57,775 nucleotides of DNA from a virus. Lineage: Duplodnaviria > Caudoviricetes. The DNA lies in the IMG/VR virus record IMGVR_UViG_3300033996_000257, positions 1 to 57,775 of that record; one strand, 5' to 3'. The notes beneath the pieces were generated by a model. That model was not told where the DNA came from. It made no database searches and saw only the letters and a list, made by a program, of their open reading frames with translations. This document shows positions 21,235 to 57,774 of this stretch, piece by piece. A program made the position numbers and the translations under genes. Within the stretch, counting starts at the first letter, position 1. Each line of letters opens with the position of its first letter.

Positions 21235-21421
21235 ACCGGGCACAGGGTTTTTTGTTCCCGGGCTGGATGTTGCAAAGATAAAGGAACTGGGGCTACGCGC
21301 CTCAGTTCCTTACAAGTACCGCACTCAAGCTTTCATTGGTATCAGAAAGGGGTTGATAGGCGTATGGTTTTATCGGAAGCCTCTCTCACCGTACGAGCTA
21401 CGGCGGTCTTTATCTTCCTAA
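21203..21421 (+). CDS. Small hypothetical protein, possibly DNA-binding
   Basis: YPW..LKPG.GFFVP...GVWFYR. Confidence 0.65.
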   Translation: MEIIYPWATLKPGTGFFVPGLDVAKIKELGLRASVPYKYRTQAFIGIRKGLIGVWFYRKPLSPYELRRSLSS

Positions 21422-24400: not shown

Positions 24401-27400
24401 GACCAGTCTTTTCGTCGCGCTTGGCTTGATCTTGGATTTCCTGTGGCAGACCAGACTCGTTGTCAACAACTTGAATCTCAGGAACATTTGCCCAGTCCTG
24501 CACTATGCGGTTGGTGAGCCGCGTAACTTCCTCGGCCTTCATGCCGTTGCCAACATTCTTGGCAGTGCGGAATAAGCCACGCAGATCAGGAGCTTCATAG
24601 CCCTCGCCGTAAGTACCTTCCTCACGCTCAGCACGCAGGGCATCCGACGCTTGCTCCAAAGTCCTTCTCTGCGGGGCCTTCAATTTGAGGCGTTCTGTAT
24701 CAGCAGCTTTACCAGCGCCCGACCCAGTACGGAAGGGCTTAGCCGCTGCCAACGCAGTGGTGCTCGGCACAGTAGCGGCCTTGGGTGCTTTGGCTGGTTT
24801 GCCTGTAATGAACGCTTGTTTCTGTGCTTCCAGTGAAGCCAGCTTCTGCATAGCGCCCAGTTTGAGCGTTGCTTGCGCACGTTTAGTATTGGTTGCGTTA
24901 GGGTCGGCCATGATGTCGGCCAACTGATTCATGTCTTCTGGCCCTATTAACGCCTGCACTTCACCACGGGCGTCAAAGATCTCGTCATCAAACAGTTGCA
25001 GCTGTTTGTCTTTGACCCTTTGACGTACGGCGGCTTCATCAACCTCTTTTGCCGCCTGCATACCTTTATCGCGCAACTCATCAAGGCGTCTTTGTTCAGG
25101 CGTATTGATCTCCGCAACTTTGCGGCCTTTCTCAAACACTGCGCCGGGTAGGTCTTTGACGCTGAGGCCATCCTTCTTGAACGCCGCAGTAACTTTAGGC
25201 CACCAGACCTTCACATCTTTTTGGAATTCGTCAGCACGTTTTTGTGCTTCGTCAACTACCGCTTGCTGTGCCTTTACTTGCGACGCTATGCGTTGCGCAG
25301 AAAGTGGATACTTGAGTTTGCCCAGTTCGCCCGGTCTGCCGGTCTCAACAGCAGTCAATGGCTCCTTGCGCATGTCGGCCAGTTGACGTTCAAGAATTTC
25401 TAAGTACTCACGCTCTGTCTTGAGGTCTTTGTCAAGCATGGCTTCTGTGACAACAACGTCGTTCTCAATTTCACCAAAACGCAGTTCTTGCAGCTCAGTC
25501 AGTTCTGTTTCAGCGCTTTCAATGTTCTCAACAAGCCCTTGAACTTTCTGCAAGTTGTTAATCAGGTTTGGCGCTTGGCCAGTACCCTCAGTCATCTCTT
25601 TTTTAGCCGCTTCAATTTGTGACTCAACTGTGGCCAGACGTGTCTTGGCAGCTTTTAAAGAACGACGTGCGCGTTCAATCTCAGGATCAAGCAATTCACC
25701 CAACGTATCAGACAAGCGTTGACGGGCTTTGCCCATTGCCGTGGCCATAGCCTTTTGATACGCGTTACGTTGGTTCTGAAGCGCAACTTCTGAGTCAATC
25801 ATTGCGCGTTGACCTTCAGTCAACATAACGGAGGTACGCAAACTTGCTTTGATAAGTTTGAGCTTATCCATCAACGGCTCAGTAACTTTGTTGAGCGCGT
25901 CAGCTTGTTTACGTACAGCCGCATTGTTGTCTTGCATCAGTTCAACTAAACGGTTGTTTGCACCTTCAAGACGTTGGCCCAATGCAAGGGTTTGCAAAGC
26001 TTGCTGAACGTTTTTAGCGTACTCAGGAATTTTGTTTGTGTTGAAGTCTTTGATTAACTTGTCTACCCGCGTTTTTTCTTCCTCAGTAAACACGGACATG
26101 GCTTGTTCTTTTTGTTCTTTTGTTTTGCCAATGTTTTGTTTAGATACTTGCAAGTACCGATCCATCAGCCTCTTGTCTTCTTTGGTAACGCCTGATTCTG
26201 GATAAGACGCAAACATTTTTGCAATGTCTGCGTCCGAGTATTTACCAATGTTGAAGTCTCCCGGCTTAATCAGGAAAAACTGCATTTGGTTTTTAACGCT
26301 TTCAATATTTTCTTTTAGCGCTTCAATCTGTTCAAAGCCTTGTTTGTCTCTAGCAGAACGTGCTTTCTGGTTGGCTTCTGTTTTTGCTTTGAGCTTGCGT
26401 GCCTGATCCAGTGCTTCCCACACAGGTTTGATCTGTGGTGATTTGGCAAAGTTGGCAGGGGTGGCGCGGATATAACCGATGTCTTTGCGAGTCTCGGGAA
26501 ACAACTGACCTTGACCCGGCGCACCTTCACCAGCAATCTCACCTTCTTGGGCTGTACGTTCATACAGCTTTATGGCATCTTGAAGCTCACGCAGTGCGCT
26601 ACCCTCAGGGGCAAGCGCGGCCTCGTAACCCACTGCTTTATATGTGCGGCCACGTTCTCCAAAGCGTGTCTCAGCTTCTCTGCCGGGCACATTCTCAACA
26701 ACACGTTTGCCGGGCACAGCTTCACGGCGGGCATACACCTGAGTGCCAAGGTCTTCGCCGCGCAGGATGCGCTCGGCTTGATTCTGGGCTGCGTCCAACA
26801 ACGCTTTGCTTGCTTTGCCGTCGTCAATGATTGTCTTGACGCGCTCCAGCGCCTCTCTAATGCCTTGAGTGCGGATAGGGCCGTCTTCAGTTTCTAAGAC
26901 TGCGCCTTCTGGGATGTTCCGTGTCAGCGCTTTGTCAATCATGTTGCCCACGTACTCACGCAGGCGGCGCATCTCCCCGCCAGCCGTCTTGGCTGTCTCA
27001 CCTCTGGCTTCTGCAACTTTCTGCGCTTCTGTGGAAGCAAACTGCTGTTTAAGCAGAGGTGTCTCGCGGGTAGCGGTGAACGGCAACTGAGACAGGCTAT
27101 CAACAACGCTGGCAATCTGAGCTTTGAAGTGCTTAATTTCTTTATTGCTGGCGGGCATTTCTTTGATTTGCTCTGCCATAGGGCGGGTATCAACAAATTC
27201 CCAAACAAACGGAAGCGTACCTTTGTCCAGCAACTCTTTTATTTGTTTTCTGATAACCGCATTAGTCCTAACGTCTAGTGCAGCAGCGGCAGAATCCACA
27301 TTTGTCACCGGTTTAATTTGTGCTTCTAAAGCAGCAAACACTTTTGTAGGTTTTTTAACCCACTCACCTGTGCTGGGTGCACCCGCAGGAACTTTAGACG

Positions 27401-29792
27401 GCGGTGTCTCACTGTATCTACGTTCAGTGATTGCGCCTCGGATAGTCTTGCCTGCGCGTTTCTGCGCAGGTTGCACAATTACTTCTTCGTATTTGGGTTT
27501 TTCCGTAAATTTCTGTACGGGCTTTACTTTTGAACGATCAATCCATTCACCCACCACATCATGAATGCGCGACGCAGCTTTGATTGCTTCGTCATATGTC
27601 AGTGAGGGTTTACCCGCAACACGGCGGTGGATAGCGGCTTCTTCCAACACAGCGGAAATGTATTTACCACGGGCATCTTCAGCTTGTTTGGCCAACACAT
27701 CAGGGGTAGCAGCAGCCACACCTTTGCCGGGTTCTGCCTTTTCTTTACCCAGAGCATCACCACGACGCAGACGGTCAATCTTGTCTTCAATTGCGTTCAA
27801 AGCTGTGTTCTGCTCATTGCGAACACGTAGTACTTCTTTGGCGTAGATGCTGGCTTGTGGGCTTACCTTGGCGCTGGGGAAGCGGCCTTTTGTCAGCTCT
27901 CCTGCTGGGGCTTCCGCAGCAAAAGCGTTAATTTGTTCAAGCGCTTGGTTCTCTCTTTCAAACGCAGCAGTGGCGGCATCTTGATTGTTTGAACGCTGCG
28001 CAACATCTCTATCCGTATTTGCCTGATCTATTTCATCAAGCAACTCGTTAATCTTGGTGCGCACCCGTTCAGCTTGTTTGGGCTGCATAAACGGCATCAA
28101 CTGAGGATTCACCGCTACTACTGGGGGTTTACCCTCAGCAATCTTTTCCAGCTTTGGCTGAATTATGTAATCAAAGAACGAGTCATCCCCAACGTTGTTA
28201 CGTCGGTCTTTAAGCTCGTCCATGTAGGAAGTAAACGCCTGTACATAGGGCGATTCTGTTTCTATAGGTTTGGCGGCACCGAAAGCTGCTTTGCGTGTCT
28301 CCATCTCCTGCTTAAAGCCCGGAGCAATTTGTAACTTCAGTGCATCCAACACCGCAGAGTTACGCACACCGGCAGGCAAACCGGGCAACTGCATGCGCTT
28401 ATTTACAATCTGATCCGCCAACACTGGGTTACGCATCAAGTATTTAACGTAGTCGGCCACCGCATCGTTGGGAGATTTTTCACCAGCAAGCTGTTGTTCG
28501 TTGGCCAACTGAATACTCTGCGCAGCGTGTTGCGCTACAACATCTTCTACCTTCGGTGCCGCAGGCGGCGTGGCAATCTGCTGCTCATAAAACTCAGGCT
28601 CAGCCTGCGCTTGTGGCGCGGCTTGCTCCGGCTCCATGCCCAACGCATACTCGTATGGGGTCAACTTAGCAACCCTTGCTTCTTCCGCAGCACGTTTCAG
28701 AATAGGCTTGACACGCACATACTCGTCAGCCAGCGGTTTAAGTTCTTTGTTTATGGCATCAATCTGGCGATTGACTTCCCGGTTGTTTGCGTAGTCTGTT
28801 TCTGGTGATACGCCTTTCTTTATTGGTATCAACTGCTGTTTGAGCGCAGTGCGCTGAGCTTCCAAGTCCTGCGTCTTTTGAAACACTTCTTGTGCGTACT
28901 CGGGACTGTTCAGCCGAACCTTTTCTTCTTCCTGCTGTTTCTCTGCTTCAGCGCGGGCTTGTTTTACTTCGTCAGTGATTGGTGTTGTTGGGGCACGGCG
29001 ACCAATAGCCAAGTCCAAAAGACCTTGCGCCAACGCACCGACTGCACCGCCGTAAGCGGCGGATTCTCCAACCTGCTCAATAATTTCTTGTTCAGGCTTG
29101 TATATACCTTTGCTAATAATGTTCTGTGCGGCTTGCGATGCGGCTTCTTGCGCGGCTTCCTCACCGCCTGCCATCAACGCACGTTTTACGTAAGACGTAG
29201 CGCCATCAAGTACCGGCTCTCCAAGACGTTTCAGAATACGTGTGGGGGCAAACATCTCTGTCGCACCAACAGCGGCACCCAACAAAGTGGAGGCGGTTTG
29301 TTGTCCTTCAGTTGCCCCCTCAGCGGCAGACTTCTCTACCTGTGTGCCAGCACCAGCGCCAATACCAAGGCCGTAGCCTGCAACACGCCCAGCCATACCA
29401 AACGGGCCGGTGGCAACAAACGGCAAAAAAGAACCCGTAGCTTCACCAAACTTACGCCCCACCGTGTCCTCGTACCCCGGCGCAGCAGCAAATGGAGCTT
29501 TGGCTGCGGCGGCTTTTTCTTTGATGTACTGTTGTGCGGCTTTTTCTTGCTCATTGGGCAACAGCGCGGAAATACCAATACCGGCTTGCTCAGTGAGGCC
29601 AATGGCTCCGGGCACAAGCCCTTTAAAGAACTCTTTTGTCTGCCCGCCAAACGTAGTTTCTTGTGTTTTTTGTGCAGGCTGCGTAGCTATTTGCCGTTTT
29701 ACAGCAGCAACAATATCTTGTTCAGAAGCGCCAGCAGGCCCCTCCACATCGTAGATCCGTCCGTCCGGGCCTTGTACGCTGTAAATTGGCAT
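21342..29792 (-). CDS. 2816-aa polyvalent internal virion/ejection protein (metallopeptidase-like plus LPD38-like C-terminus)
   Basis: N-terminal Gly/Ala hydrophobic helices; long coiled coil; GLYDP...LAHEVAGHFGLR...EEVLAE; NFNKRG..IPFFNA.IQG, LPVPFEIG. Confidence 0.8.
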   Translation of the reverse strand: MPIYSVQGPDGRIYDVEGPAGASEQDIVAAVKRQIATQPAQKTQETTFGGQTKEFFKGLVPGAIGLTEQAGIGISALLPNEQEKAAQQYIKEKAAAAKAPFAAAPGYEDTVGRKFGEATGSFLPFVATGPFGMAGRVAGYGLGIGAGAGTQVEKSAAEGATEGQQTASTLLGAAVGATEMFAPTRILKRLGEPVLDGATSYVKRALMAGGEEAAQEAASQAAQNIISKGIYKPEQEIIEQVGESAAYGGAVGALAQGLLDLAIGRRAPTTPITDEVKQARAEAEKQQEEEKVRLNSPEYAQEVFQKTQDLEAQRTALKQQLIPIKKGVSPETDYANNREVNRQIDAINKELKPLADEYVRVKPILKRAAEEARVAKLTPYEYALGMEPEQAAPQAQAEPEFYEQQIATPPAAPKVEDVVAQHAAQSIQLANEQQLAGEKSPNDAVADYVKYLMRNPVLADQIVNKRMQLPGLPAGVRNSAVLDALKLQIAPGFKQEMETRKAAFGAAKPIETESPYVQAFTSYMDELKDRRNNVGDDSFFDYIIQPKLEKIAEGKPPVVAVNPQLMPFMQPKQAERVRTKINELLDEIDQANTDRDVAQRSNNQDAATAAFERENQALEQINAFAAEAPAGELTKGRFPSAKVSPQASIYAKEVLRVRNEQNTALNAIEDKIDRLRRGDALGKEKAEPGKGVAAATPDVLAKQAEDARGKYISAVLEEAAIHRRVAGKPSLTYDEAIKAASRIHDVVGEWIDRSKVKPVQKFTEKPKYEEVIVQPAQKRAGKTIRGAITERRYSETPPSKVPAGAPSTGEWVKKPTKVFAALEAQIKPVTNVDSAAAALDVRTNAVIRKQIKELLDKGTLPFVWEFVDTRPMAEQIKEMPASNKEIKHFKAQIASVVDSLSQLPFTATRETPLLKQQFASTEAQKVAEARGETAKTAGGEMRRLREYVGNMIDKALTRNIPEGAVLETEDGPIRTQGIREALERVKTIIDDGKASKALLDAAQNQAERILRGEDLGTQVYARREAVPGKRVVENVPGREAETRFGERGRTYKAVGYEAALAPEGSALRELQDAIKLYERTAQEGEIAGEGAPGQGQLFPETRKDIGYIRATPANFAKSPQIKPVWEALDQARKLKAKTEANQKARSARDKQGFEQIEALKENIESVKNQMQFFLIKPGDFNIGKYSDADIAKMFASYPESGVTKEDKRLMDRYLQVSKQNIGKTKEQKEQAMSVFTEEEKTRVDKLIKDFNTNKIPEYAKNVQQALQTLALGQRLEGANNRLVELMQDNNAAVRKQADALNKVTEPLMDKLKLIKASLRTSVMLTEGQRAMIDSEVALQNQRNAYQKAMATAMGKARQRLSDTLGELLDPEIERARRSLKAAKTRLATVESQIEAAKKEMTEGTGQAPNLINNLQKVQGLVENIESAETELTELQELRFGEIENDVVVTEAMLDKDLKTEREYLEILERQLADMRKEPLTAVETGRPGELGKLKYPLSAQRIASQVKAQQAVVDEAQKRADEFQKDVKVWWPKVTAAFKKDGLSVKDLPGAVFEKGRKVAEINTPEQRRLDELRDKGMQAAKEVDEAAVRQRVKDKQLQLFDDEIFDARGEVQALIGPEDMNQLADIMADPNATNTKRAQATLKLGAMQKLASLEAQKQAFITGKPAKAPKAATVPSTTALAAAKPFRTGSGAGKAADTERLKLKAPQRRTLEQASDALRAEREEGTYGEGYEAPDLRGLFRTAKNVGNGMKAEEVTRLTNRIVQDWANVPEIQVVDNESGLPQEIQDQAKRDEKTGQIPGLYDPNTKIVYLVASNLGNGNDVAMTLAHEVAGHFGLREVLGGTYASTMNRVYEGNSAVRKQTDAKMQAEPNLDRNTAVEEVLAEMAETGATPANESALRQIYNAIKQWLANTFGIENVTDNEVKQIVANARKYVIEGTQAAEGEVDKSGILYRTKATYTNPEIAKNSDFVDKIVAKDRSWTDKLKANLTGLAFETQLVDRFAGFERLAKYMEPLKGTQMLYYLRMYDQRMNFVSQAVSNGAPAIVEKTRPDGRVERVLESKESANINNVVQILRDAQPMVGNAEAVNTMFTTYMAAIRAKNKGLSSLNFGEDVTQELLDKTMAAIEATPGLEAVFKSAKDEYNAYNRNLIDFVVSTGALSKEVGKRLLRENDYIPFYRERNGVAELLIGGESPIRIGSIAEQPYLHELVGGDRPILDFLTSSVQNTNLLMDMGMRNLATKNAVFELVDLKAAKFVKMAAGPDVVKFRDDGADRYAVIATEKVKIGNKEFDTGVPADILVKGMEGIPTQMPAMLRVMAFPAQVLRKAITLSPLYTAKQLFRDSLAAPILSGADFMPVIGALKEINSATKKTLERRGVTGGQQFVGGAEDLTKILRDVSEGKPGWMTALGKLEAMSMEADATTRRAQYNSYIQQGLSEMEATLLALESMNFNKRGASPSIHIANSMIPFFNAQIQGLNVLYKAATGKMPFNEQLRIREKMMQRGALMAVASFAYAALMQDDEAYKNANPDQKYGNWFIRVPGLDEPIKLPVPFEIGYIFKALPEALLNSMLNEHGSEEAVKAFKQILLQTVPGGSSYGIPQIMKPAIEAGLGKSFYTGRDILSAREKELLPEEQFRANTSELAKGIGKTLGISPIVFEQLVSGYTGTMGLAFMHALSVGVPTGESPEKAVKRLSEYPILGGAFQPNDAGGIINSVYERMNENIKVKQTFDKMVAEGRMSEAKALLQRRGNEFMQAEMAQSFKNDMSMLTQAERAIAASNMSPEAKREQLDKIRKIKTAVARTVREASDKTIRLSTPF

Positions 29793-46104: not shown

Positions 46105-46545
46105 TTATGCGATGCGGATGATTGCGGTTGTATCAGTGGCCGCAGGAAACTGCACCACAAATGTGTTGGCTGAAGTCTTGTCTGCGCCAAAGTCCAACAC
46201 GCAGACTGCGGGGTTGGTTGTGCCATTTGCCTTGTAGATCAGTGCGCCACGAGCTGTGAACGCACCAGTCCATGAGGCATTGGCAAAGGACAAGTATGCG
46301 GTTGTGTTAGGGGGATTGCCTGTAGTGGGGACTTGATTGATTACCAGAATCTCGCCACCTGCTGTATACCCAGAAGCCACAACTTCGCCCGTAGACGTAT
46401 AAGCTGCGGTAGCCGCATCAAGCGTGGCTGCATTGGTGTAGAGCGCAATTTTAAAAACGTCCGTTGTGCCTGTGCCGAAATCGTACAAGCCTTCCAGCAG
46501 GCCAGTGCGAAACACGTTGCAGGTGTAGTTGCCGGTAAAAGCCAT
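46105..46545 (-). CDS. Virion structural protein (tail-associated)
   Basis: FKIALYT, GYTAGG, ARGALIY, VLDFGADK. Confidence 0.75.
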   Translation of the reverse strand: MAFTGNYTCNVFRTGLLEGLYDFGTGTTDVFKIALYTNAATLDAATAAYTSTGEVVASGYTAGGEILVINQVPTTGNPPNTTAYLSFANASWTGAFTARGALIYKANGTTNPAVCVLDFGADKTSANTFVVQFPAATDTTAIIRIA

Positions 46546-47276
46546 CAACGCACCCCATTATTCTGAGGAAGCGGCGCTTCTCTGTACTGGCCACTTCGGT
46601 ACGCGTCGCTGCGCTCCAGACCATCGCCCAGACGTTTGGCCATTCCAAGTGCTTCCATGTATTTCTGGTTGTAGCCAGCAATAACATCTGGCTCACCCTT
46701 CATGAAGGTGTAAGCCTCAACCAAGGAGCCGTACAACAACACAGAGTCAAAGTTGTCGCCCAACCAAGTTTGGCCTGATGCCGCAGTGGTGATGGATTCT
46801 GGATAGTAGTAATAGTGCAACTCAACGTCGTAAGCGGCATCAGGAGTTGGGCCAAGAATAAAGCTCAACTCGTTTGTGATTACAGGGCTTGGGTCGTTGG
46901 TAGTCGTTGGGCCAAACAGCGCGTAGTACTTGGGGATGGCTGTATCGGTTGGCTGTGGGTAGGCTTGGCGGATGAAGTTGACATCCTTGTTCAGCAAATA
47001 CTCGTACGCGCCTGTAGCATCAATGACTGCCAACGAATACGAAGACAAAAAGTCTGCTGGACACGACAAGTATTTATTACCGCTGGAGGTTATCCCCGTC
47101 ACGTTTTTGCGCAACGAGGGGAACTGAACCGTGTTGAAAATGCGCTGCTCAGCCTGCTCAATGAAGGTATTCAACTGCGTCTGGGGAGACACAGTTGAAT
47201 TGTCATACAGGTACGTTGCCGGGAACGTGTTCTCGGTGTACGACTGAATAGCGGCAATCAACTCGGTGTAGGTCAT
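46545..47276 (-). CDS. Head-tail adaptor protein
   Basis: MTY.EL...I..Y.E, FI.QAEQRI, P.YY, GPTPD..Y, LLYGSL.EA. Confidence 0.75.
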   Translation of the reverse strand: MTYTELIAAIQSYTENTFPATYLYDNSTVSPQTQLNTFIEQAEQRIFNTVQFPSLRKNVTGITSSGNKYLSCPADFLSSYSLAVIDATGAYEYLLNKDVNFIRQAYPQPTDTAIPKYYALFGPTTTNDPSPVITNELSFILGPTPDAAYDVELHYYYYPESITTAASGQTWLGDNFDSVLLYGSLVEAYTFMKGEPDVIAGYNQKYMEALGMAKRLGDGLERSDAYRSGQYREAPLPQNNGVR

Positions 47277-47473
47277 GCCATTGGGCCCCTAGCCATTTTG
47301 CCTTTGGTCTGCGCTTTACCGCCGCGCACAACAATGCCGGAGGTTTTCATGGGCGGGTAGTCACCGCTGCGTACATTGGCCACAGAAACATTTGCTTCGC
47401 GCAGATATTCCTTATTTGGCTGGTTGTACACGTCAACGGTTGGGATTGTTTTGGGTTGGTTGTATTCAGCCAT
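47273..47473 (-). CDS. Small basic protein
   Basis: C-terminal KTSGIVVRGGKAQTKGKMARGPMA. Confidence 0.7.
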   Translation of the reverse strand: MAEYNQPKTIPTVDVYNQPNKEYLREANVSVANVRSGDYPPMKTSGIVVRGGKAQTKGKMARGPMA

Positions 47474-47474
47474 C

Positions 47475-47666
47475 TTAGCCTCCGCGACCAGAAGAACGCT
47501 GGTTCATGATCTTGGCCATGTTGCGACCATACTTCAGCATGTCGCTATTGGTCTTACCACCAGCCTTGAGCTTGGTGGGTTTTTTGCCGGGGTGCATGTT
47601 TTTTTCATGCTTGCCCACAGCAGATTTAATCATCTTTTTGTCTTGCGCTAAATCTTTCTTGTCCAT
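47475..47666 (-). CDS. Small basic protein
   Basis: LKAGGK motif; AAGGAG SD. Confidence 0.7.
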   Translation of the reverse strand: MDKKDLAQDKKMIKSAVGKHEKNMHPGKKPTKLKAGGKTNSDMLKYGRNMAKIMNQRSSGRGG

Positions 47667-47676
47667 GATCGACTCC

Positions 47677-48105
47677 TTATGTCGTTGCTACTGTAACTGT
47701 ACCAATTTCTACCGCAGAAACCAAGTCATTTGGGGTTAAACCTGCATCATTTGCCCGCGAGCCCCCAACTGGTGCCCAACCCCACTGAAATATCCGACTA
47801 CCGCCACCAACCACGCCTTGCGCATCAACACTTGGGCTGTTGGTCAGGACAACCTGCAAACCTGTGCGCCCAGAAACTTGGTAGCTCAGGTCGGGACGTG
47901 GGTCACGCACACCTTGGGGGTCATCCACCGGATACATGCCCAACTGCAATTGCGGCTGGTCAGGCTCCCAGCACTGGGGGCACACCTTCAGGTCATACGT
48001 CTTGGTCTTGACGACGAGCTTTTGCAAAACCGTCAGCTTGAACCGAAATCCACAGCGGTCGCACTCGGCAATCGAGTTTTTGCCAGAGGAAAACCTATTT
48101 CCCAT
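47677..48105 (-). CDS. Conserved Zn-ribbon structural-module protein
   Basis: CDRCG...VCPQCWEPDQPQL. Confidence 0.75.
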   Translation of the reverse strand: MGNRFSSGKNSIAECDRCGFRFKLTVLQKLVVKTKTYDLKVCPQCWEPDQPQLQLGMYPVDDPQGVRDPRPDLSYQVSGRTGLQVVLTNSPSVDAQGVVGGGSRIFQWGWAPVGGSRANDAGLTPNDLVSAVEIGTVTVATT

Positions 48106-49040
48106 CAGCCACCACCAATGAACATCTGTCTAGGCACGAGCCGCAGTGCGGCGCGTTCCTGATCTTCATCAGCCGCTGTCATCCAAGCCTCGTCGTACTG
48201 TTGTTTCAGCACTTGGAGCCTGTCCATGCCACCGGGCACTTTCAAAGCGATGTAGTAGGCCAGTCCAGCCACCATACAAGGGACAAACCGGAAGGGCACG
48301 TCCATGACGTTAACACCGCTGCCCGCATCCTGCACCCGGCGCATGCGCCAGTACACAAACTGGTACTGCTGGGAGCCGTCAGGCGTTGGCCACATGGTCA
48401 CGCGAGGGGTGTTATTGATGTAAATCTTGGCATTGACGCTGGCAGTATGAGAAGCGGCAGTCGTGCCGTTCTGGCCACGGAAGCAGTCCCCCAAAGTGTT
48501 GCCATCAATGTAGTTGTAGAAGATGGTTTCGTTGTCAAGGTTGATGTACCCGATGGCGGGCAAACCAACCACGTTGGACAGGACGATTGTGTTGTCCGTG
48601 GCGTTGATATTTGTGGCCAAAACCGCCGTGGTAGGAGTAATTTGGCCGTCCAAACGCTGATACCAGACCTGAATTGGTCTGGCTTGCGTGATTTTATTGG
48701 GGATGGTGGCGTAGGTCGAGACGCTGATGCGTGTGATTGTCAAATCCGACTGTGTTGCGGCCACATTTGCCTGTGTTCGGATGACGTGATCGAGCAAATC
48801 GACAGTATCTGTGGGGATTGCGTAGGTGTTCAAGCCTTGAGTTAGGGTAATCGTGCCCTGCTCGAACGTCCACATGTTGATACCGCGATTTGCCCAGTCA
48901 GCAAACAGCAAATTCAGCGACCGGCGAGCCGTTTTCAGGTCATATCCAGTGCGCAACTCTGAACCAGCTCGCTCAAACGCCTCCTCCACCAGTTCGGTGA
49001 GGTCTAAGGTAAAGCCTGTTTGTCCAGAGGTTGTTGCCAT
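48105..49040 (-). CDS. Head completion / tail tubular A-like protein (P22 gp4-like) with insertion
   Basis: EEAFER.G, ARRSLN, WANRG.N.W, WPTPD, GLAYY. Confidence 0.7.
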   Translation of the reverse strand: MATTSGQTGFTLDLTELVEEAFERAGSELRTGYDLKTARRSLNLLFADWANRGINMWTFEQGTITLTQGLNTYAIPTDTVDLLDHVIRTQANVAATQSDLTITRISVSTYATIPNKITQARPIQVWYQRLDGQITPTTAVLATNINATDNTIVLSNVVGLPAIGYINLDNETIFYNYIDGNTLGDCFRGQNGTTAASHTASVNAKIYINNTPRVTMWPTPDGSQQYQFVYWRMRRVQDAGSGVNVMDVPFRFVPCMVAGLAYYIALKVPGGMDRLQVLKQQYDEAWMTAADEDQERAALRLVPRQMFIGGG

Positions 49041-49043
49041 TTT

Positions 49044-50120
49044 TTACCGTCTATTTTGTTTTTTCGCCGCCAGCTTTTGAATGGCGCGGGCCACAGCCGG
49101 AGGAGTCTTGGGGGGCACAACAGAAGGCTTGGCCGCTGCTTTTGCCATTGGTGGTGCAACTGGTTTTGGTGCCACAGGGGCGGGTCGTGACACCGAAGGT
49201 TTTGCCATTGGTGTAGGACGTGCAGTTGGTACAGTCGTCATTGGAGGGGTGGGCTTGCCACCTAAAAGTGCTGCCAAACTTTCCAAGCCTGCTTGGGGAG
49301 CTTGTCCTAAACCCACTTGACCTTGCTGCATAGCTTGTTGCTGAGCCGCCTGTTGCATAGCTTGTTGCTGAGCCGCCTGTTGGGCCATCTGACCCATTTG
49401 TTGCCCATAAGGCTGTGCAAAACCGGGCATACCACCCTGTGTTTGACCGCCCTGTCCTCCGGGCATGCCAATCTCGGGTTGCGGAATGTTGGCCATATTA
49501 CCCAACTGGCCAAATCGGTTACCCAACTGGCCTAGTTGGTTGTTGTTGCCAGAGCCGCCGGGTTGCGGCATGGGATTTTGAGGTATCTGACCGTAAAGCT
49601 GATTTGGATCGGCAAGACCTTTGTATTTTCTGTAGGCAGCATCTTGTGCTCTGCCAACCGACCCGGAACCCATCTGTCCAAAGTACGGGGAGTTATACAT
49701 ATCTTGAGTGGCCATCATGTTTCGCGGGTCGTTTTGATATTCCTTGAACTCGGGCGATTGGAAAAACGCATCATCTGTGCCCACCATTTGGGCTGGGCCA
49801 CCTACTTGAGGTTGTCCACCGTATGAATCAATACCGGGCATATTAGGTGACGGTAGAGGTGTAAGTTGTCCACCCATATTGCCACCAAACCCACCGCCCA
49901 TGTTGGGTTGGTTTTGCATTGATCTCAAGTCGCCAAATGAGTGTTGACCCATGTTGCCACCAAACCCACCGCCCATGCTACCCATCGGGTTTTGAGGTTG
50001 TCCGCCCATGCCGCCCAAAGCTCCGCCAACGGCGTTGCCAATTTGCCCCATAGGGTTGGGAGGGGTTACCGCAGGGCTTTGTGCCCCGACGCCTCCAGTT
50101 GTTCCGCCGCCGCCTGCCAT
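49044..50120 (-). CDS. Low-complexity G/Q/P/M-rich protein
   Basis: 358 aa; GGAG SD; internal repeats; basic C-terminus. Confidence 0.7.
   Translation of the reverse strand: MAGGGGTTGGVGAQSPAVTPPNPMGQIGNAVGGALGGMGGQPQNPMGSMGGGFGGNMGQHSFGDLRSMQNQPNMGGGFGGNMGGQLTPLPSPNMPGIDSYGGQPQVGGPAQMVGTDDAFFQSPEFKEYQNDPRNMMATQDMYNSPYFGQMGSGSVGRAQDAAYRKYKGLADPNQLYGQIPQNPMPQPGGSGNNNQLGQLGNRFGQLGNMANIPQPEIGMPGGQGGQTQGGMPGFAQPYGQQMGQMAQQAAQQQAMQQAAQQQAMQQGQVGLGQAPQAGLESLAALLGGKPTPPMTTVPTARPTPMAKPSVSRPAPVAPKPVAPPMAKAAAKPSVVPPKTPPAVARAIQKLAAKKQNRR
49327..49380. repeat. 27-bp tandem duplication
   Basis: GCATAGCTTGTTGCTGAGCCGCCTGTT twice, encoding QQAAQQQAM twice. Confidence 0.85.
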
Positions 50121-50129
50121 AATGTTCTC

Positions 50130-50363
50130 CTATCTAAATTTTGCCGTTTTCTTGGCAATCACTTTGGGTTGTGCTACAAACTGCCTACCCGCCTTTTTAC
50201 CAGATCGCTTGGCCTTGGTTGTCGCAGCGTATTCGGCTGGCGACAAGGACTTGATAGCGGCTTCTGGCAGGTAACGCTCGCCCGTTTTAGATGAAGGCTT
50301 CCCTGACTTGGTGCGCCATTTCTGGTCGCCCCAGTTTTTAAGAGAAGCCTGCGGCGCTTTCAC
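50130..50363 (-). CDS. DUF5872-like protein, C-terminal half
   Basis: Q.SLK.W..QKWRTKSGKPS...ERYLP..A. Confidence 0.7.
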   Translation of the reverse strand: MKAPQASLKNWGDQKWRTKSGKPSSKTGERYLPEAAIKSLSPAEYAATTKAKRSGKKAGRQFVAQPKVIAKKTAKFR

Positions 50364-50686
50364 TTCATCATACCCCGCGTCTTACCGCGTTGCGCTATTC
50401 CGTCTGCACGAAATGAAGCTGACTTGACCGTGCCGCCTTTTTTCATGCCACGAGTTTCGCGTTGCAATTCGGAAGCATACTCTTTAGCTTTAGCGTCAGG
50501 CAGTGTAAGCCCCGGCCCAATAGTACGGCCTTTGCCGTTCTTTGTTCGGTAAATATAACTTTTCCCAGTTGGGACGCCAAAATCGTCGCTAGTTTGTCCT
50601 TGACTATCAGTCCCGCCAAGCGTTTCAGGCTCTGTAGTAAACCTAGCTGTACCGGTCTTTTTCTTTTCAGTCACGATATCCTCCAC
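50360..50686 (-). CDS. Small basic protein with GG and GKTRG tail
   Basis: MKKGGTVKSASFRADGIAQRGKTRGMMK. Confidence 0.7.
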   Translation of the reverse strand: MEDIVTEKKKTGTARFTTEPETLGGTDSQGQTSDDFGVPTGKSYIYRTKNGKGRTIGPGLTLPDAKAKEYASELQRETRGMKKGGTVKSASFRADGIAQRGKTRGMMK

Positions 50687-50942
50687 CTGCTGCCTTGTAC
50701 TTCTTGGCTACCAACTGAGCCTTACGGGCTGACCACTGGCCTGCACCGGTGCCGTGTGTTGCCGCTGCTTTCACTTGGCTGACTATACGTTTCCTGAGTT
50801 CCGGCTTGGTGTAGTTCCCCGCCGCGTTGACTTTCCCACCCTCTTTGTATTGGGTGAAATCGGTGTCATCGCGGCGCGGAGTCTTCACGCCTTTGGGCAT
50901 CTTTGAGGGGTTGATGTCCCCCATACCACGGCTGGACATCAT
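50667..50942 (-). CDS. Small basic protein containing the DUF5872-like N-terminal half
   Basis: YKEGGKV; YTKPELRKRI...GQWSARKAQLVAKKYKAAGGGY. Confidence 0.7.
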   Translation of the reverse strand: MMSSRGMGDINPSKMPKGVKTPRRDDTDFTQYKEGGKVNAAGNYTKPELRKRIVSQVKAAATHGTGAGQWSARKAQLVAKKYKAAGGGYRD

Positions 50943-50943
50943 G

Positions 50944-51306
50944 TCAGCAGTAGGCTTTGCCGCCAGACTTCATGGTGACCATCTTGCCTTTGGTTTTGCC
51001 TTTTACAGCAATACCATCTTTGCTTGGGGCAGCCGTTTTAACTTTGCCCATTGATGTCATGCCACCAGAAGCCATTTTCTTCATTGGCATTTCTTTCTTG
51101 CCTTTTGCCATGTCTTTTTTCTTGGCAATCATTTCCATGAAAGGGTTTGCTTTAGCCATATCACCACCTCTTTTAAAAGTTTTGCCTTTGTCGGCGTTTG
51201 AAAAATCCTTGCCCACAGACTGTGGGACTCCCACCTTCTTGGCAAACGATGGGTTGTTGGCCACCGCTTCCATGAAATTGTGCTGCTTCTTACTCGTGCT
51301 TGGCAT
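50944..51306 (-). CDS. Small K/M-rich basic protein
   Basis: MPSTSKKQHNFMEAVA; three xxxGG motifs; KDGIAVKGKTKG. Confidence 0.75.
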   Translation of the reverse strand: MPSTSKKQHNFMEAVANNPSFAKKVGVPQSVGKDFSNADKGKTFKRGGDMAKANPFMEMIAKKKDMAKGKKEMPMKKMASGGMTSMGKVKTAAPSKDGIAVKGKTKGKMVTMKSGGKAYC

Positions 51307-51478
51307 ACTTAGCCACCAAGTTTTTAACAGTTTCAGTTTCCCAGATGCGGATAGTCATCCACACAATGGTCAATACTCCACCAATGAGTGCTACAACAGG
51401 GGTCATCCAGCCCATGAAACCGCCAAGTCCAACAACCACAGCAGCGCCATCAGTCATTGTTTTTATGTCGTTGTTCAT
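51290..51478 (-). CDS. Small membrane protein, holin-like
   Basis: 62 aa, largely hydrophobic; IVW..IRIWE. Confidence 0.6.
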   Translation of the reverse strand: MNNDIKTMTDGAAVVVGLGGFMGWMTPVVALIGGVLTIVWMTIRIWETETVKNLVAKYAKHE

Positions 51479-51801
51479 ACCATCCGTCCTTTGGTTTTGC
51501 CTTTGACGGCACAGCCGTCAGCACGTTTGGAGGCACTAGAGACTTTTCCACCTTTGGCGTAGTCATCGCTCGTGCGCGGGGATCTGTCACTAGAATCAGA
51601 ACTTCTACCTCTGGGGGAGCCAAAACTCATTTCACCAGAAAACTCTGATTCTCGGTCAGCTTTTTCTTTGTAGTCTTTTGAAGAGCGGCTACCGGTAGGA
51701 CGAGGATTTAATGTCGAAGACGGGATGCTACGAAAGCCTCCGCCCCCACCGCCACCTTCAAGCATCTGGTCATCAGTAGGTTTTTTACCAATTTTTTTCA
51801 T
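51475..51801 (-). CDS. Small basic disordered protein with GG and GKTKG tail
   Basis: YAKGGKVSSASKRADGCAVKGKTKGRMV; GAGGT SD. Confidence 0.7.
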   Translation of the reverse strand: MKKIGKKPTDDQMLEGGGGGGGFRSIPSSTLNPRPTGSRSSKDYKEKADRESEFSGEMSFGSPRGRSSDSSDRSPRTSDDYAKGGKVSSASKRADGCAVKGKTKGRMV

Positions 51802-51808
51802 GTTTACC

Positions 51809-52063
51809 TCAACACTTCCAAGCCCGCAGGCTCTTGTTAATCCTCGAATTTGGATCCTTGGCGGTTTTTTCGCTCGTTAATTTCTTCTTCATCCCTTCCA
51901 TACGGGCGCAGAAGGAGTCGCGGCGTTTGCCGCCCTCTGGTTGAGGAGCTTTCAGCCCGGGCTTCCCGGGGTTCGCCTTGTTGTAGGAAGCCCGACCTTT
52001 GGCGTTCAAGCCTCCGCTCTCGGACTTCCCTTCCTTGCGCGTCCATGCTGGGGATTTAGCCAT
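51809..52063 (-). CDS. Conserved small basic phage protein (DUF6321-like)
   Basis: GGLNAKGR, RR.SFCARM, SRINKSLR.W.C. Confidence 0.75.
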   Translation of the reverse strand: MAKSPAWTRKEGKSESGGLNAKGRASYNKANPGKPGLKAPQPEGGKRRDSFCARMEGMKKKLTSEKTAKDPNSRINKSLRAWKC

Positions 52064-53152: not shown

Positions 53153-53169
53153 TGGTTTGAATATACAGC

Positions 53170-53197
53170 AAAAGAAAAGGGGGCGCTAGCCCCCTTC
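53170..53197 (-). terminator. Rho-independent terminator after the major capsid gene
   Basis: AAGGGGGC-TAGC-GCCCCCTT then TTCTTTT on the minus strand. Confidence 0.85.
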
Positions 53198-53208
53198 CCT
53201 CAAGTCGC

Positions 53209-54138
53209 TTACGCGCCTGCTGAACCCCACATACCGAGAGGATCAGACCAGCCGAAGCTGTAACGCTCACGAGCTTTGTAACGGACGTTGCCGGTATCAA
53301 AGTCGCCGTCCATCGAGTTAGCCAAAGGCATACGCTCGAAATGCTTCATGCCGTTTGGAACGTCGGTAATCAAATACCAGCCGTTTGTATCGGTCAAGAA
53401 GTTGTTGACGGTATAGCCTTCTGGCACTACGCCCATTTGCTTCAACGCGTTGATGTCGTTGTCAGCAGTAGAGACGCGCAGTTCAGTGTCAAGCAAACGC
53501 TTGGCAACGAACATCAGTGAAGGAGGAATAACCATCTTGCGAGGCTTGGCGGCAATCAACAGACCACGCTCATCAGTCCATGCTGCGATTTGAATCACGG
53601 CATTTTCCAAAGAGGTTTCGTTCAAGTCCACACCAACGGAGGGGCTGTTGAAGTTCACACCACCGTTAACCAGTGGGTGGCCAACACGAGTGCTGGAGCT
53701 GTTGTTACCGAACAATGTGACACCGTCACCGCCCAAGTAAGAACCGTTAAAACCGTTGTTGATGACGGAAGCGGACTTAACTTGTTTGGTGAAGGCCATT
53801 GCACGGGCCAAGGCTTTGGTGTAGCGAGCAGACAAGCTGTCGTACAAGTTATCTTCAACCGCTTCTTCAGTGATTGAGAAACCCAAAGCAATGGTTTCGT
53901 GGTTGTAGCGGGCGGTGAATGCTTCTTGCGCATTGTCGTAAGCGATGGCAGAGCCTTCGTTCTTGACAGGTGCTGCACCGAAGCCAGCCAACTTGGTTTC
54001 TTCTTCAAAGCTACGCTCAGATTTCTCTGTTTCGTAGATCTCTTTGTGCTGTTCGCCGTAACGTGCATATTCCATGCCGAACAAAGCGTTCAGGCCGGGG
54101 AGCAGTTCTTTGAGTAGTTGTGCGCGTGAAATAGCCAT
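53209..54138 (-). CDS. Major capsid protein
   Basis: MAISRAQLLKELLPGLNALFG, K.EG.AI.YD, DFDTGNVRYKARERYSFGWSD; strong SD and downstream terminator. Confidence 0.9.
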   Translation of the reverse strand: MAISRAQLLKELLPGLNALFGMEYARYGEQHKEIYETEKSERSFEEETKLAGFGAAPVKNEGSAIAYDNAQEAFTARYNHETIALGFSITEEAVEDNLYDSLSARYTKALARAMAFTKQVKSASVINNGFNGSYLGGDGVTLFGNNSSSTRVGHPLVNGGVNFNSPSVGVDLNETSLENAVIQIAAWTDERGLLIAAKPRKMVIPPSLMFVAKRLLDTELRVSTADNDINALKQMGVVPEGYTVNNFLTDTNGWYLITDVPNGMKHFERMPLANSMDGDFDTGNVRYKARERYSFGWSDPLGMWGSAGA

Positions 54139-56619: not shown

Positions 56620-56806
56620 TTGCTTTTTCCACTTTCTCAGCAAGGTCGATTAGATAGCGCTCTGCGGTGGCCAGACCCTGAATGACTCCGCAAAGTTTTT
56701 GGTACTCGTCAAAGTTGCGACACATCCCACCAGCCAAGTCATCGGCGTAGTTGTTCATGTCGGTGCGTATTTGTTCGCGCAATACGCGTGCGAATTCTGA
56801 AATCAT
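56612..56806 (-). CDS. Conserved small protein between portal and GroES
   Basis: L..G...FDEY..LCG.I.GL. Confidence 0.75.
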   Translation of the reverse strand: MISEFARVLREQIRTDMNNYADDLAGGMCRNFDEYQKLCGVIQGLATAERYLIDLAEKVEKANE

Positions 56807-57774
56807 TGTTTAGGCGTCTCCTTTGGGTTTTGTGCAGCTTGGTTTGCAAGCTGGGCTTTTTGCATCTTGTGTTGACCTGCTTTGTTCAGGGCATCCACTT
56901 GCAACTTCTTGTTCTCAAACTCTTGGCGAGCTTTGTCGTTCTTGAGTTGACCTGCTTTGGCCAACGCATCAAGCTGCATCTTCTTGTCGGCTTGTTTTGC
57001 TTGTTCCATCTTGGCCATGCCGTCCATCTGCAAGCGTTGTTGCTCAAGTTGCAATTTGCCTTGGACTTCTTGCTGACGAAGCTGCAACTCTTGTTGCTTG
57101 AGCTGCAACTCTTGCTGCTGCATCTGAACCATCGGGTCTTGCTGTTGCTGCTGCGCTTGCTGTTGAGCCGCTTGCGCTTGGCTCTGTTGAAGAACCTGCT
57201 GTGCAGCTTGGGCCATCATGGCCGACAACTGAATCTCGATCTCAGGTGGCATCTTCTCGTCTTCGGGAGGCAGGGGCATACCCAACTGTTGCTCGATCTT
57301 CAGCTTGTACGCGTAGCCAACGTGCTCAGCAACGTGGGCCATCATGGCTGCCTGAATCATCGGAGCCTTGGGGTTTTGGCCGATCAACTGCATCACGATG
57401 GGGTCTTGCATGGCGCTCATGTGCACCTTGATGTGTGACTCGTGGTCTTGGTAGAAGAACGCTTTGACCGGCTCGCCTTTGAGCACTGCCATGTTCTCGG
57501 CCACTGGGTCGCGGGGCTTCTGGTCGTCAGGCAGGGGCACGAGCTTGTCGGCATCCTTGATACCCAGCACCTCGAGCATCCCACGGTGTAGTTTGGGCAG
57601 GTCGTAAATCTCCGGAGCCATCTGCGCCATCTGGATCACGGCTTGGTACTGGACAACGCGTTGGCTCATGGTGGCCGCGTTGGGGTCGCTCACAGGGATG
57701 ATGTCGATGTGTGCGTAGTCTTCCCGTTTGGCTTTGCGTGGGGCATCGCTGTCTGGGTCGTAATCGTAGTCAGG
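56803..57774 (-). CDS. Portal protein, C-terminal part (5' end outside the window)
   Basis: Frame open to the window edge; DIIPVSDPN, DP..EN, QDH..HI..H, Gln-rich coiled-coil tail; gene position. Confidence 0.75.
   Translation of the reverse strand, partial: PDYDYDPDSDAPRKAKREDYAHIDIIPVSDPNAATMSQRVVQYQAVIQMAQMAPEIYDLPKLHRGMLEVLGIKDADKLVPLPDDQKPRDPVAENMAVLKGEPVKAFFYQDHESHIKVHMSAMQDPIVMQLIGQNPKAPMIQAAMMAHVAEHVGYAYKLKIEQQLGMPLPPEDEKMPPEIEIQLSAMMAQAAQQVLQQSQAQAAQQQAQQQQQDPMVQMQQQELQLKQQELQLRQQEVQGKLQLEQQRLQMDGMAKMEQAKQADKKMQLDALAKAGQLKNDKARQEFENKKLQVDALNKAGQHKMQKAQLANQAAQNPKETPKQ

Follow-up and report, generated by a model that had tools for sequence, protein, structure and literature searches.

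What do phages gain from a series of very small, basic proteins encoded between their capsid and adaptor genes, and why do some of these proteins end in nearly the same peptide? The question is raised by the viral contig IMGVR_UViG_3300033996_000257, a stretch of 57,775 bases (hereafter the window) with an estimated completeness of 90%. Three otherwise dissimilar proteins of the window, which we call tail proteins A (51475-51801), B (50360-50686), and C (50944-51306), end in a module of approximately 28 residues, the tail, with the consensus [MY]xKGGxVSSASKRADGxAx(K/R)GKT(K/R)GxM. Several proteins of the same run also carry a shorter motif, the [YFML]xxGG box. A preliminary description of the window had stated that the three proteins end alike, and this was borne out: the strict pattern DGxAx[KR]GKT[KR]G has exactly 3 matches in the six-frame translation of the window, all located 3 to 13 residues before the stop of the open reading frames (ORFs) of A, B, and C. 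The core string GxxxxGK[TS] is found 5 times in the six frames, namely in the 3 tails and twice in an AAA ATPase gene. When the three tails were aligned, 11 of the 32 columns were invariant. The corresponding DNA showed a mean column identity of 62% with many synonymous differences, which indicates that the protein sequence has been conserved and that the tails are not recent copies.

A tail profile built from relatives gave 59.1 bits with protein A, 44.6 bits with protein B, and 39.8 bits with protein C, and at most 2.0 bits with the nine other proteins of the cluster. The preliminary description had proposed a looser version of the tail in the small protein p66 (47273-47473). Because this protein scores 2.0 bits it lies outside the tail family; it belongs to a family of its own with a different conserved end (...IRGTGAATKGxMARGPM), of which the cultured Planktothrix phage Pag-Yong1 has a counterpart at the same place. 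That all these genes lie between the capsid and adaptor genes, as had also been described, holds for the main run, while p66 and the small basic protein p63 (47475-47666) sit between two adaptor genes. All members of the run are basic, with isoelectric points (pI) of 9.8 to 10.8 and net charges of +5 to +19 (+8 to +19 for the tail proteins), and the last 28 residues of the tail proteins, counted from their sequences, contribute a net charge of +6 or +7.

To analyze the spread of the tail, we used a first profile made from the last 44 residues of the three window proteins. Among 8,000 candidates scored, 7,573 proteins were found at E-values up to 10 (best 9e-21); among the 120 matches listed there was no Pfam domain, and all were named 'hypothetical protein'. 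Searched against 1.84 billion cluster representatives, the tail profile matched 5,683 clusters (50% identity) at E-values up to 0.001, of which 301 were at E-values up to 1e-10. The cluster sequences displayed a constant end, ...RETRGMKKGGKVSSASKRADGIAQRGKTRGRMV, on unrelated N-terminal parts, as well as a second tail type, ...KKMASGGMTSMGKVKTAAPSRDGVAVKGKTKGKMV, often followed by MxxGGxxC. Some proteins contained two tails (P0001, P0003, P0005, P0007, P0019, P0121, and P0141). P0123, among the top 150 clusters, was discarded as a WD40 false positive with 11 weak repeats.

The genomic surroundings of the tail genes were compared in viral-contig loci, for which we took the best 80 of 484 relatives, many of them short contigs. 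All 80 loci share one cassette, with the order capsid, (p93), DUF6321, 1 to 7 tail genes, p91, (p77), adaptor 1, CxxC protein, (p63), (p66), and adaptor 2. The tail genes are placed after the DUF6321 and capsid genes. The majority precede p91 and p77, whereas a few are interspersed with, or adjacent to, p91, p77, and adaptor 1. A regular expression identified 219 tail ORFs in these loci, all on the strand of the structural genes, with at least 2 in 75 of the 80 loci, one in four, and only a cut match in one. The profile built from the three window tails alone raised this number to 233, again all on the structural-gene strand, and in 163 of them the tail ended no more than 5 residues from the C-terminus. 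In some relatives the DUF6321 protein itself has a terminal tail; such forms were found in L008, L019, and L020, and ends of the type ...GGGCE[IV]RGKT[KR]GKMV were also seen. The sequences in front of the tail were highly diverse: 205 distinct bodies fell into 117 BLAST groups, 97 of which were singletons, and the one large group (51 members) corresponds to the protein C family. A profile of the motif across related genomes was a check that the preliminary description had called for, with the expectation of a constant tag on variable N-termini, and this is the arrangement that we found. Its proposal of a modular tag with variable cargo is thus supported as regards the variability of the bodies; recognizable cargo was not found, since 98 of the 100 longest tail proteins had no Pfam domain.

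The tail is confined to one capsid lineage. Where the flank reaches the capsid gene (40 of the 80 viral loci and 8 of 21 loci in metagenome bins), this gene always belongs to the same family, with 71% to 94% identity (74% to 81% in the bin loci). These 21 bin contigs came from a search of 185,579 prokaryote species genomes, in which the tail occurred only on phage-like contigs of metagenome bins assigned to several phyla; no tail was found in any isolate genome of that set. Of the 21 contigs 20 could be labeled, and all 20 carried the same cassette. Because they are phage contigs binned with bacteria, they provide no host information. The one cultured carrier found is Pag-Yong1, in which the tail occurs once, at the end of a Pro/Ala/Arg-rich protein of 308 amino acids (aa) (UMO75986.1) encoded two genes upstream of the adaptor gene. 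With tblastn, whole proteins A and B had no match in 50,697 phage records, probably owing to the low-complexity filter and their short length. A literature search found no paper containing DUF6321, Pag-Yong1, or the tail strings, and the literature on the proteome of Puniceispirillum phage HMO-2011, a phage in which the tail was not found, contained nothing on this lineage. The main text of the HTVC023P-type genome paper (PMC9599517) has no passage on hypervariable or internal virion proteins. Altogether, these results show that a real, widespread, and unannotated pair of motifs defines a variable cassette of basic mini-proteins, and that the head operon in which this cassette lies belongs to an abundant lineage of aquatic phages.

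The combination of a conserved terminal peptide with variable basic bodies, a variable cassette at a fixed place, a single capsid lineage, and absence from cellular genomes leads us to rank first, albeit tentatively, the explanation that the tail-bearing proteins are head-internal proteins with a shared docking or DNA-contact tail. Such late proteins of the head module would consist of short linear motifs on disordered Lys/Gly/Met-rich chains. Their working part would be the strongly basic module of approximately 28 residues, GG followed by V-SSAS-KRADG-x-A-x-(K/R)GKT(K/R)G-x-M, which would fold only on its partner. Packaged inside the head, the proteins would be held by the tail to an internal ligand that does not vary, which could be the conserved inside of this lineage's capsid shell or the packaged DNA; the lysine-rich chains would lie along the DNA, and the proteins would leave the head together with the DNA when the phage infects a cell. 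On this view the variable bodies constitute an accessory payload that evolves quickly, functionally like the internal proteins of phage T4, and the [YFML]xxGG box, the other conserved motif, would mark where exchangeable modules are joined. We infer co-transcription with the capsid genes, presence in the virion, and the ligand. Support for a position inside the head is provided by the N-terminal module of protein C, which also heads the 'structural protein' CBB_322 of jumbo phage CBB and PHROGs annotated as 'virion structural protein'.

The synteny described above also bears on a rather unlikely alternative, in which the proteins act outside the particle in a late intracellular role, e.g., as helpers of head or neck assembly or as binders of a universal host component, with the tail as the shared contact. 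The run includes a small protein that may span a membrane. Moreover, the p77 homologue of HMO-2011 lies among non-structural genes and the DUF6321 domain of cyanomyovirus P-RSM4 among auxiliary genes between the terminase genes. A universal host target would also fit the extreme conservation that the tail shows in contigs assigned to bins of several bacterial phyla. An intracellular function is harder to reconcile with the fixed position of the tail genes in the capsid-to-adaptor operon of all loci examined, with the tail being in no isolate prokaryote genome, and with the fast turnover of the bodies. Such turnover is typical of proteins that meet the next host, and proteins made late would have to be packaged to do so.

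We then considered how strongly the tail is conserved. Pairwise comparison of 134 distinct tail DNAs (21 codons each) gave mean identities of 0.71 (residues), 0.74 (first and second codon positions), and 0.38 (third position), and identical residues were encoded by different codons in 58% of the cases. The low identity at position 3 and the varied codons indicate an old divergence under strong purifying selection. In the cassette, the median identities of the homologues were 83% for DUF6321, 79% for the capsid protein, 78% for p77, and 71% for p91, so that the small basic neighbors match the capsid protein in conservation. Lower values were obtained for the two adaptors (60% and 58%), for the scaffold-like protein (41%), and for a 200-aa protein (34%). 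The GxxxxGK[TS] core was present in 222 of 226 distinct tails, 217 of which had the form DGxxxxGK[TS], and the core Lys was replaced in only 3 of the 226 (twice by Leu and once by Arg). The residue that follows the core DG is most commonly Cys (106 of 211 distinct tails; some have DGCC), as seen for example in L052 (3405-3947), L058 (7331-7627), and L062 (3024-3539). In the second tail type a GG box is followed by a terminal Cys, and the capsid protein contains no Cys.

AlphaFold2 predicted a three-helix N-terminal module for protein C (34 sequences; residues 1-40) with predicted local distance difference test (pLDDT) values of 78 to 91, and an unstructured tail (pLDDT 46-55). When the tail was modeled alone (112 sequences), it was also a coil (pLDDT 55-65). 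This predicted disorder suggests a linear motif that would become folded only when bound to a partner. The model of protein C had no Foldseek match in the PDB at E-values up to 0.001, and its best rows (E-value about 1) were helix-turn-helix repressors. A complex prediction of the capsid protein (32-row alignment) with a 44-residue tail (112 rows) gave a score of 0.00; it was run without controls and constitutes no evidence either way. An ESM Atlas search returned unnamed viral clusters only, and Pfam searches of 11 tail proteins at E-values up to 10 produced only chance rows; the three window proteins and four tandem-tail relatives had no match other than four such rows for one of the relatives. 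Weak summed PDB matches to designed and natural beta-propellers, like the WD40 match of P0123, were treated as a chance likeness of ...SASxxxDGxxxxxx... to a propeller blade.

These properties are most relevant to the main rival, a possible but less probable explanation than the one we favor, in which the tail is itself the effector, a binder of polyanions such as the DNA backbone. The proteins would then be charge neutralizers or cross-linkers similar to protamines or to adenovirus mu, without any addressing function, acting in the head or, in the cell, on DNA that is being replicated or packaged. The existence of proteins that are only a tail, or tails in tandem, suggests that the tail is the working part rather than a pure address label. 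The charge of the tail proteins, shared by their equally basic tail-less neighbors, the phosphate-loop pattern of nearly all tails, and a predicted disorder that is common in nucleic-acid-binding tails point in the same direction. So do a conservation that does not follow the fast-evolving scaffold and the helix-turn-helix DNA binders among the non-significant Foldseek rows for the N-module of protein C. Non-specific DNA-binding tails, however, usually keep their composition and not their sequence, whereas approximately 20 positions, including an Asp, are nearly fixed here; nor would a plain binder be expected to be confined to one capsid lineage or to need the rule that places most tails at the very C-terminus. 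DNA binding can be partly true alongside a location inside the head.

A more specific version of phosphate binding was suggested by the likeness of the core to the Walker A string GxxxxGK[ST], which all 3 window tails share. A P-loop NTPase was rejected: no strand-loop-helix was predicted (AlphaFold2 coil, pLDDT 46-65), no Walker B was present, and no P-loop Pfam family matched at E-values up to 10. In addition, the tail proteins differ from P-loop proteins in ending 3 to 13 residues after the string. Designed short P-loop peptides reportedly bind phosphate ligands and nucleic acids. Judging from its sequence, the tail might conceivably be a free-standing phosphate-binding loop of approximately 20 residues, a Walker A string without the fold, that clamps the DNA backbone or nucleotide phosphates in thousands of phage proteins, but we regard this as improbable.

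The second motif of the cassette, the [YFML]xxGG box, likewise proved to be real. In the window, 9 boxes occur in the 717 residues of the eight small basic proteins, compared with 22 boxes in 51 other predicted proteins totaling 16,740 residues (odds ratio 9.7, p 3e-6). Given a GG, a box is formed in 9 of 20 cases versus 22 of 110 (odds ratio 3.3, p 0.02). In the relatives, the density was 14.6 boxes per 1000 residues in tail proteins and 1.9 in structural homologues. Among unique homologues, 70 of 71 for p91 and 14 of 14 for p63 retain the box, which is rare in the homologues of DUF6321 (1 of 57), p77 (6 of 51), and p66 (2 of 27). The window copies of p91 (YKEGGKV) and p63 (LKAGGK), which the preliminary description had seen as carrying the GG part only, contain the box and have no tail by the profile. 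Box-bearing basic mini-proteins occur at the same genomic place in lake phage DSL-LC04 and Pelagibacter phage HTVC023P. An alignment of the protein C family has the appearance of beads on a string, consisting of the N-module, F-x-x-G-G, a variable linker with MKKGG or KKMAxGG boxes, the tail core, M-x-x-G-G, 1 to 3 residues, and a terminal Cys. In at least two of the p91 homologues, a different C-terminal module directly follows the box, and a basic N-terminal leader that ends in a box, of the form MKKxK[KR][FY]x[DE]GG, is present in 28 of 212 tail proteins. By their sequences, modules have evidently been exchanged among the genes of the cassette, with the box marking the joints.

The same architecture could be read as that of mini-polyproteins that are cut after GG at the boxes, freeing a basic tail of approximately 23 residues and the other modules, as the adenovirus protease frees mu and VII. 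The location of the boxes at the module joints (N-module, box, linker, box, tail, box, short Cys end), the module switch directly after the box in p91, the N-terminal leaders, and the excess of boxes in tail proteins over structural homologues would agree with such processing. A Gly-Gly pair suits a flexible joint equally well, though, and we observed no gene beginning immediately after a box. No protease was identified by Pfam among the 64 window proteins scanned, nor by PHROGs among the 31 that were also scanned with that database, and the head module contained no prohead protease. Two upstream proteins considered for this role were discarded, one of 150 aa with one invariant Cys and no invariant His, and one of 316 aa that is coiled-coil and scaffold-like. 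The adenovirus proteins VII and mu (from pX) are very basic, are made late and packed with the genome, and contain Gly-Gly processing sites ((M/I/L)XGG-X). The window-family proteins resemble them in being small and very basic and in bearing Gly-Gly motifs, but the hydrophobic residue of the box is at P5 and not at P4 as in the (M/I/L)XGG-X and LXGG rules, no protease of clan CE or other type was found, and there is no homology. We hold cleavage at the boxes, for which only the architecture speaks, to be improbable.

The internal proteins of T4 carry an N-terminal tag of about 10 residues, which the prohead protease cuts off. According to the passages of PMC3012670 that deal with them, these proteins (IPI, IPII, IPIII, and Alt) are small, mostly basic, and diverse, share only a short terminal capsid-targeting sequence that brings them into the prohead, and are encoded at a variable locus, and their lysines contact DNA phosphates. 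In the window family, one tag on 117 groups of bodies and a variable cassette (1 to 7 tail genes) in fixed synteny recall this organization. The differences are considerable: the module is C-terminal in 163 of 233 cases, approximately 28 residues long, and without apparent likeness to the T4 tag, no protease was found, packaging is presumed, and the phage is short-tailed with an unrelated head module. By analogy, the tail cassette would work most like the T4 internal-protein system with a different construction. By its sequence features it is placed outside that system, with a tag at the opposite end that is three times longer and without sequence likeness.

Other systems share single traits with the tail. 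Encapsulin cargo-loading peptides are likewise short, disordered, C-terminal, and common to unrelated proteins, and they dock on the inner face of a shell with the HK97 fold, which we take to be also the fold of the Phage_capsid_4 and Mu-like_gpT families matched by the capsid protein of the window. Their consensus is Gly/Ser/Leu/Ile-rich and hydrophobic (GSLxIGSLKG-like), unlike the Lys/Arg-rich tail. The T7 proteins gp6.7 and gp7.3 are small, basic, Gly-rich, and encoded beside head genes, and according to the annotation of the T7 record the virion injects gp6.7, whereas gp7.3 is required for infectivity; with -1.2 and -5.8 bits in the tail profile they were rejected as relatives. The PBCV-specific basic adaptor domain (PF08789) and the KGG stress repeat (PF10685) are also short basic modules on otherwise unrelated small proteins, and membership of either family was rejected (0 matches at E-values up to 10 for 11 proteins).

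Several observations weigh against a location of the tail proteins inside the head. Proteins that consist of little but one or two tails (P0149, 48 aa; P0121, 73 aa; P0176, 49 aa) make little sense as a label without cargo, and among the 100 longest of 212 distinct tail proteins we found no enzyme, the only Pfam domain being DUF6496 in 2 of them. The tail is not strictly terminal, since it ends 6 to 20 residues from the C-terminus in 59 of the 233 ORFs and further away in 11, and in some relatives of p63 the tail core (ADGI[AT]KKGKT[EK]G) is N-terminal. Close capsid relatives can lack it: a profile search of the whole records of HTVC023P, DSL-LC04, CRP-902, Alcaligenes phage QDWS535, and Caulobacter phage RW found the tail in 0 of 5, with the window and Pag-Yong1 as positive controls (both found). 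The near-invariant Asp of the core is odd for a tail that plainly binds DNA, and non-specific binding by charge would not be expected to keep 20 residues nearly invariant. The hydrophobic-stretch protein within the run and the p77 homologue among non-structural genes of HMO-2011 indicate that not every member need be a virion protein. Finally, a PDB sequence search with the tail and capsid profiles returned no related structure, and no proteome or structure of any tail carrier was found in the literature and PDB searches.

A near-invariant peptide on more than 100 unrelated bodies in a variable cassette of the head operon is the expected signature of a protein-packaging or genome-coating system. 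Its carriers form a large recurrent lineage of uncultured relatives of the HTVC023P-type phages, and the 5,683 clusters are unannotated. If the tail loads proteins into the head, it would be a ready tag for bringing foreign proteins into environmental phages and would flag a pool of probably injected, fast-evolving proteins; if it binds DNA, it would represent a new small nucleic-acid-binding motif. As a phosphate loop, it would be a living counterpart of the laboratory minimal P-loop peptides that model the origin of the most common protein fold, and also a portable handle for packing proteins with phage DNA. Under either head loading or DNA binding, the analysis names and delimits two motifs that annotation pipelines now miss.

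The window encodes early genes on the plus strand up to approximately 21 kb and late genes on the minus strand beyond. Its capsid protein (53209-54138) is 69% identical to that of Pag-Yong1 and of two other records of equal length, 62% to that of HTVC023P, and 61% to that of DSL-LC04. Between 59% and 97% of the sampled words of the stretch studied are present in 18 lake-water metagenome runs, 2 of which are possible sources; this near-complete presence indicates that the window is a recurrent freshwater phage of the wider HTVC023P-like group. The late genes run on the minus strand in the order scaffold-like 316-aa protein (the coiled-coil protein upstream of the capsid gene), 150-aa protein, 200-aa protein, capsid, cement-like 192-aa protein, a short coiled-coil protein, p93, and DUF6321, followed by tail protein A, the 62-aa hydrophobic-stretch protein, tail protein C, p91, tail protein B, p77, and the 358-aa Gly/Gln/Met-rich protein, and then by adaptor 1, the CxxC protein, p63, p66, and adaptor 2 (Table 1). 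An open frame at 56803-57774 (minus strand), whose homologues in relatives have 320 to 848 aa, is cut by the end of the window and is probably the portal gene, given its position before a GroES-like gene. Since the window ends inside this probable portal gene, the terminase is missing from the 90%-complete contig. The true start of tail protein B is probably the ATG four codons into the frame, because the database copies are 104 aa long; a widely shared ...YASELQRETRG segment precedes its tail.

Table 1. Coordinates of the small-protein cassette and its borders in the window (aa, amino acids; pI, isoelectric point).
Feature	Position	Strand	Properties	Relatives and families
Tail protein A	51475..51801	-	108 aa, pI 9.9; polar body with Gly7 run; YAKGG box and tail at residues 81-108 (51478-51561)	Homologues in 51/80 loci; no Pfam or PHROG family
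Tail protein B	50360..50686	-	108 aa from GTG, 104 aa from ATG at 50674; MKKGG box and tail at 50363-50449	
Tail protein C	50944..51306	-	120 aa; N-terminal three-helix module (51175-51306, predicted), FKRGG box, linker, KKMASGG box, second-type tail (50977-51066), final MKSGGKAYC	Homologues in 58/80 loci; N-module matches phrog_16759, phrog_22033, phrog_25121
p91	50667..50942	-	Small basic; YKEGGKV box between two modules; no tail	phrog_17747; 73/80 loci
p77	50130..50363	-	Small basic, pI 10.8; neither box nor tail	phrog_14910; 52/80 loci
DUF6321 protein	51809..52063	-	84 aa, pI 10.5; first gene of small-protein run	Pfam PF19846 (E 6e-19); 59/80 loci
Hydrophobic-stretch protein	51290..51478	-	62 aa; may span membrane; mid-run	Homologues in 9/80 loci, same place
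Low-complexity protein	49044..50120	-	358 aa; Gly/Gln/Met/Pro/Asn-rich; Pro/Ala/Lys-rich basic end; directly upstream of adaptor 1; no tail	
p63	47475..47666	-	Small basic; LKAGGKT box; -2.3 bits with tail profile (window copy)	
p66	47273..47473	-	Own conserved end ...SGIVVRGGKAQTKGKMARGPMA	Family in 27/80 loci
Major capsid protein	53209..54138	-	Upstream border of cassette	Pfam Phage_capsid_4 (E 3e-11) and Mu-like_gpT
Terminator-like hairpin	53169..53202	-	13 pairs, GC-rich core, then T run; directly after capsid stop; consensus match only	
Adaptor 1	48105..49040	-	Downstream border of main run	Pfam SU10_adaptor (E 4e-9); 74/80 loci
CxxC...CxxC protein	47677..48105	-	142 aa; between adaptors	64/80 loci
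Adaptor 2	46545..47276	-		Pfam SU10_adaptor (E 6e-23); 58/80 loci

The strong hairpin that follows the capsid gene suggests that transcription reaches the small-protein run by read-through, so that the run would be expressed less than the capsid gene; no promoter-like excess was found within the run. In four lake metatranscriptome runs, contig pieces identical to the window span much of the capsid gene, and one run (X20) also covers 50746-51061, a segment with p91 and the protein C end. We take these pieces as no more than a hint of transcription, because such libraries can hold DNA, the contigs cannot rank genes, and uncovered parts are uninformative.

Some neighbors of the tail genes are unusual in themselves. 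The hydrophobic-stretch protein at 51290-51478 is odd for a head operon; at the matching position, DSL-LC04 encodes a small protein with a hydrophobic N-terminus. The protein encoded at 49044-50120 contains repeated GGFGGNMG-like units that give it a prion-like low-complexity look inside the head operon; it matched neither a Pfam nor a PHROG family, and BLAST found none of its homologues in the 80 loci.

Modules of the cassette have relatives in distant phages. The N-module of protein C (42 residues, 51175-51306, minus strand) matches 129 phage records, mostly of jumbo phages: phiKZ-like Pseudomonas jumbo phages encode a free-standing version of 58 aa (PA7 gp204; L116 3001-3177) with 81% identity to the module, which also heads the 847-aa CBB_322 (L117 3001-5544), a protein that carries an HELQH string. 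The DUF6321 gene (51809-52063) has approximately 72% to 79% DNA identity with T4-like cyanophages. In Prochlorococcus phage P-RSM4 the domain forms the C-terminal end of the 365-aa PRSM4_120 (L118 4001-5098), located between the terminase genes among auxiliary metabolic genes, and in PHROGs it ends proteins of up to 928 residues. The p77 gene matches gp59 of HMO-2011 (L084 10665-10904; 73.5% DNA identity), which lies between lysozyme and auxiliary oxygenase genes in a phage with a different, P22-type coat protein.

The records OQ594354.1 (Synechococcus MinM2), OL906435.1 (Planktothrix Pag-Yong1), and PP438419.1 (Planktothricoides Pra-JY27) name different cyanobacterial hosts, are all 65,014 bases long, and gave identical match statistics at permuted coordinates, so that they may be one genome deposited three times. 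The late operon of the window further encodes a protein of 2,816 aa (21342-29792, minus strand) with a C-terminal LPD38 'large polyvalent protein' domain (E-value 2e-30), which is a candidate giant ejected protein.

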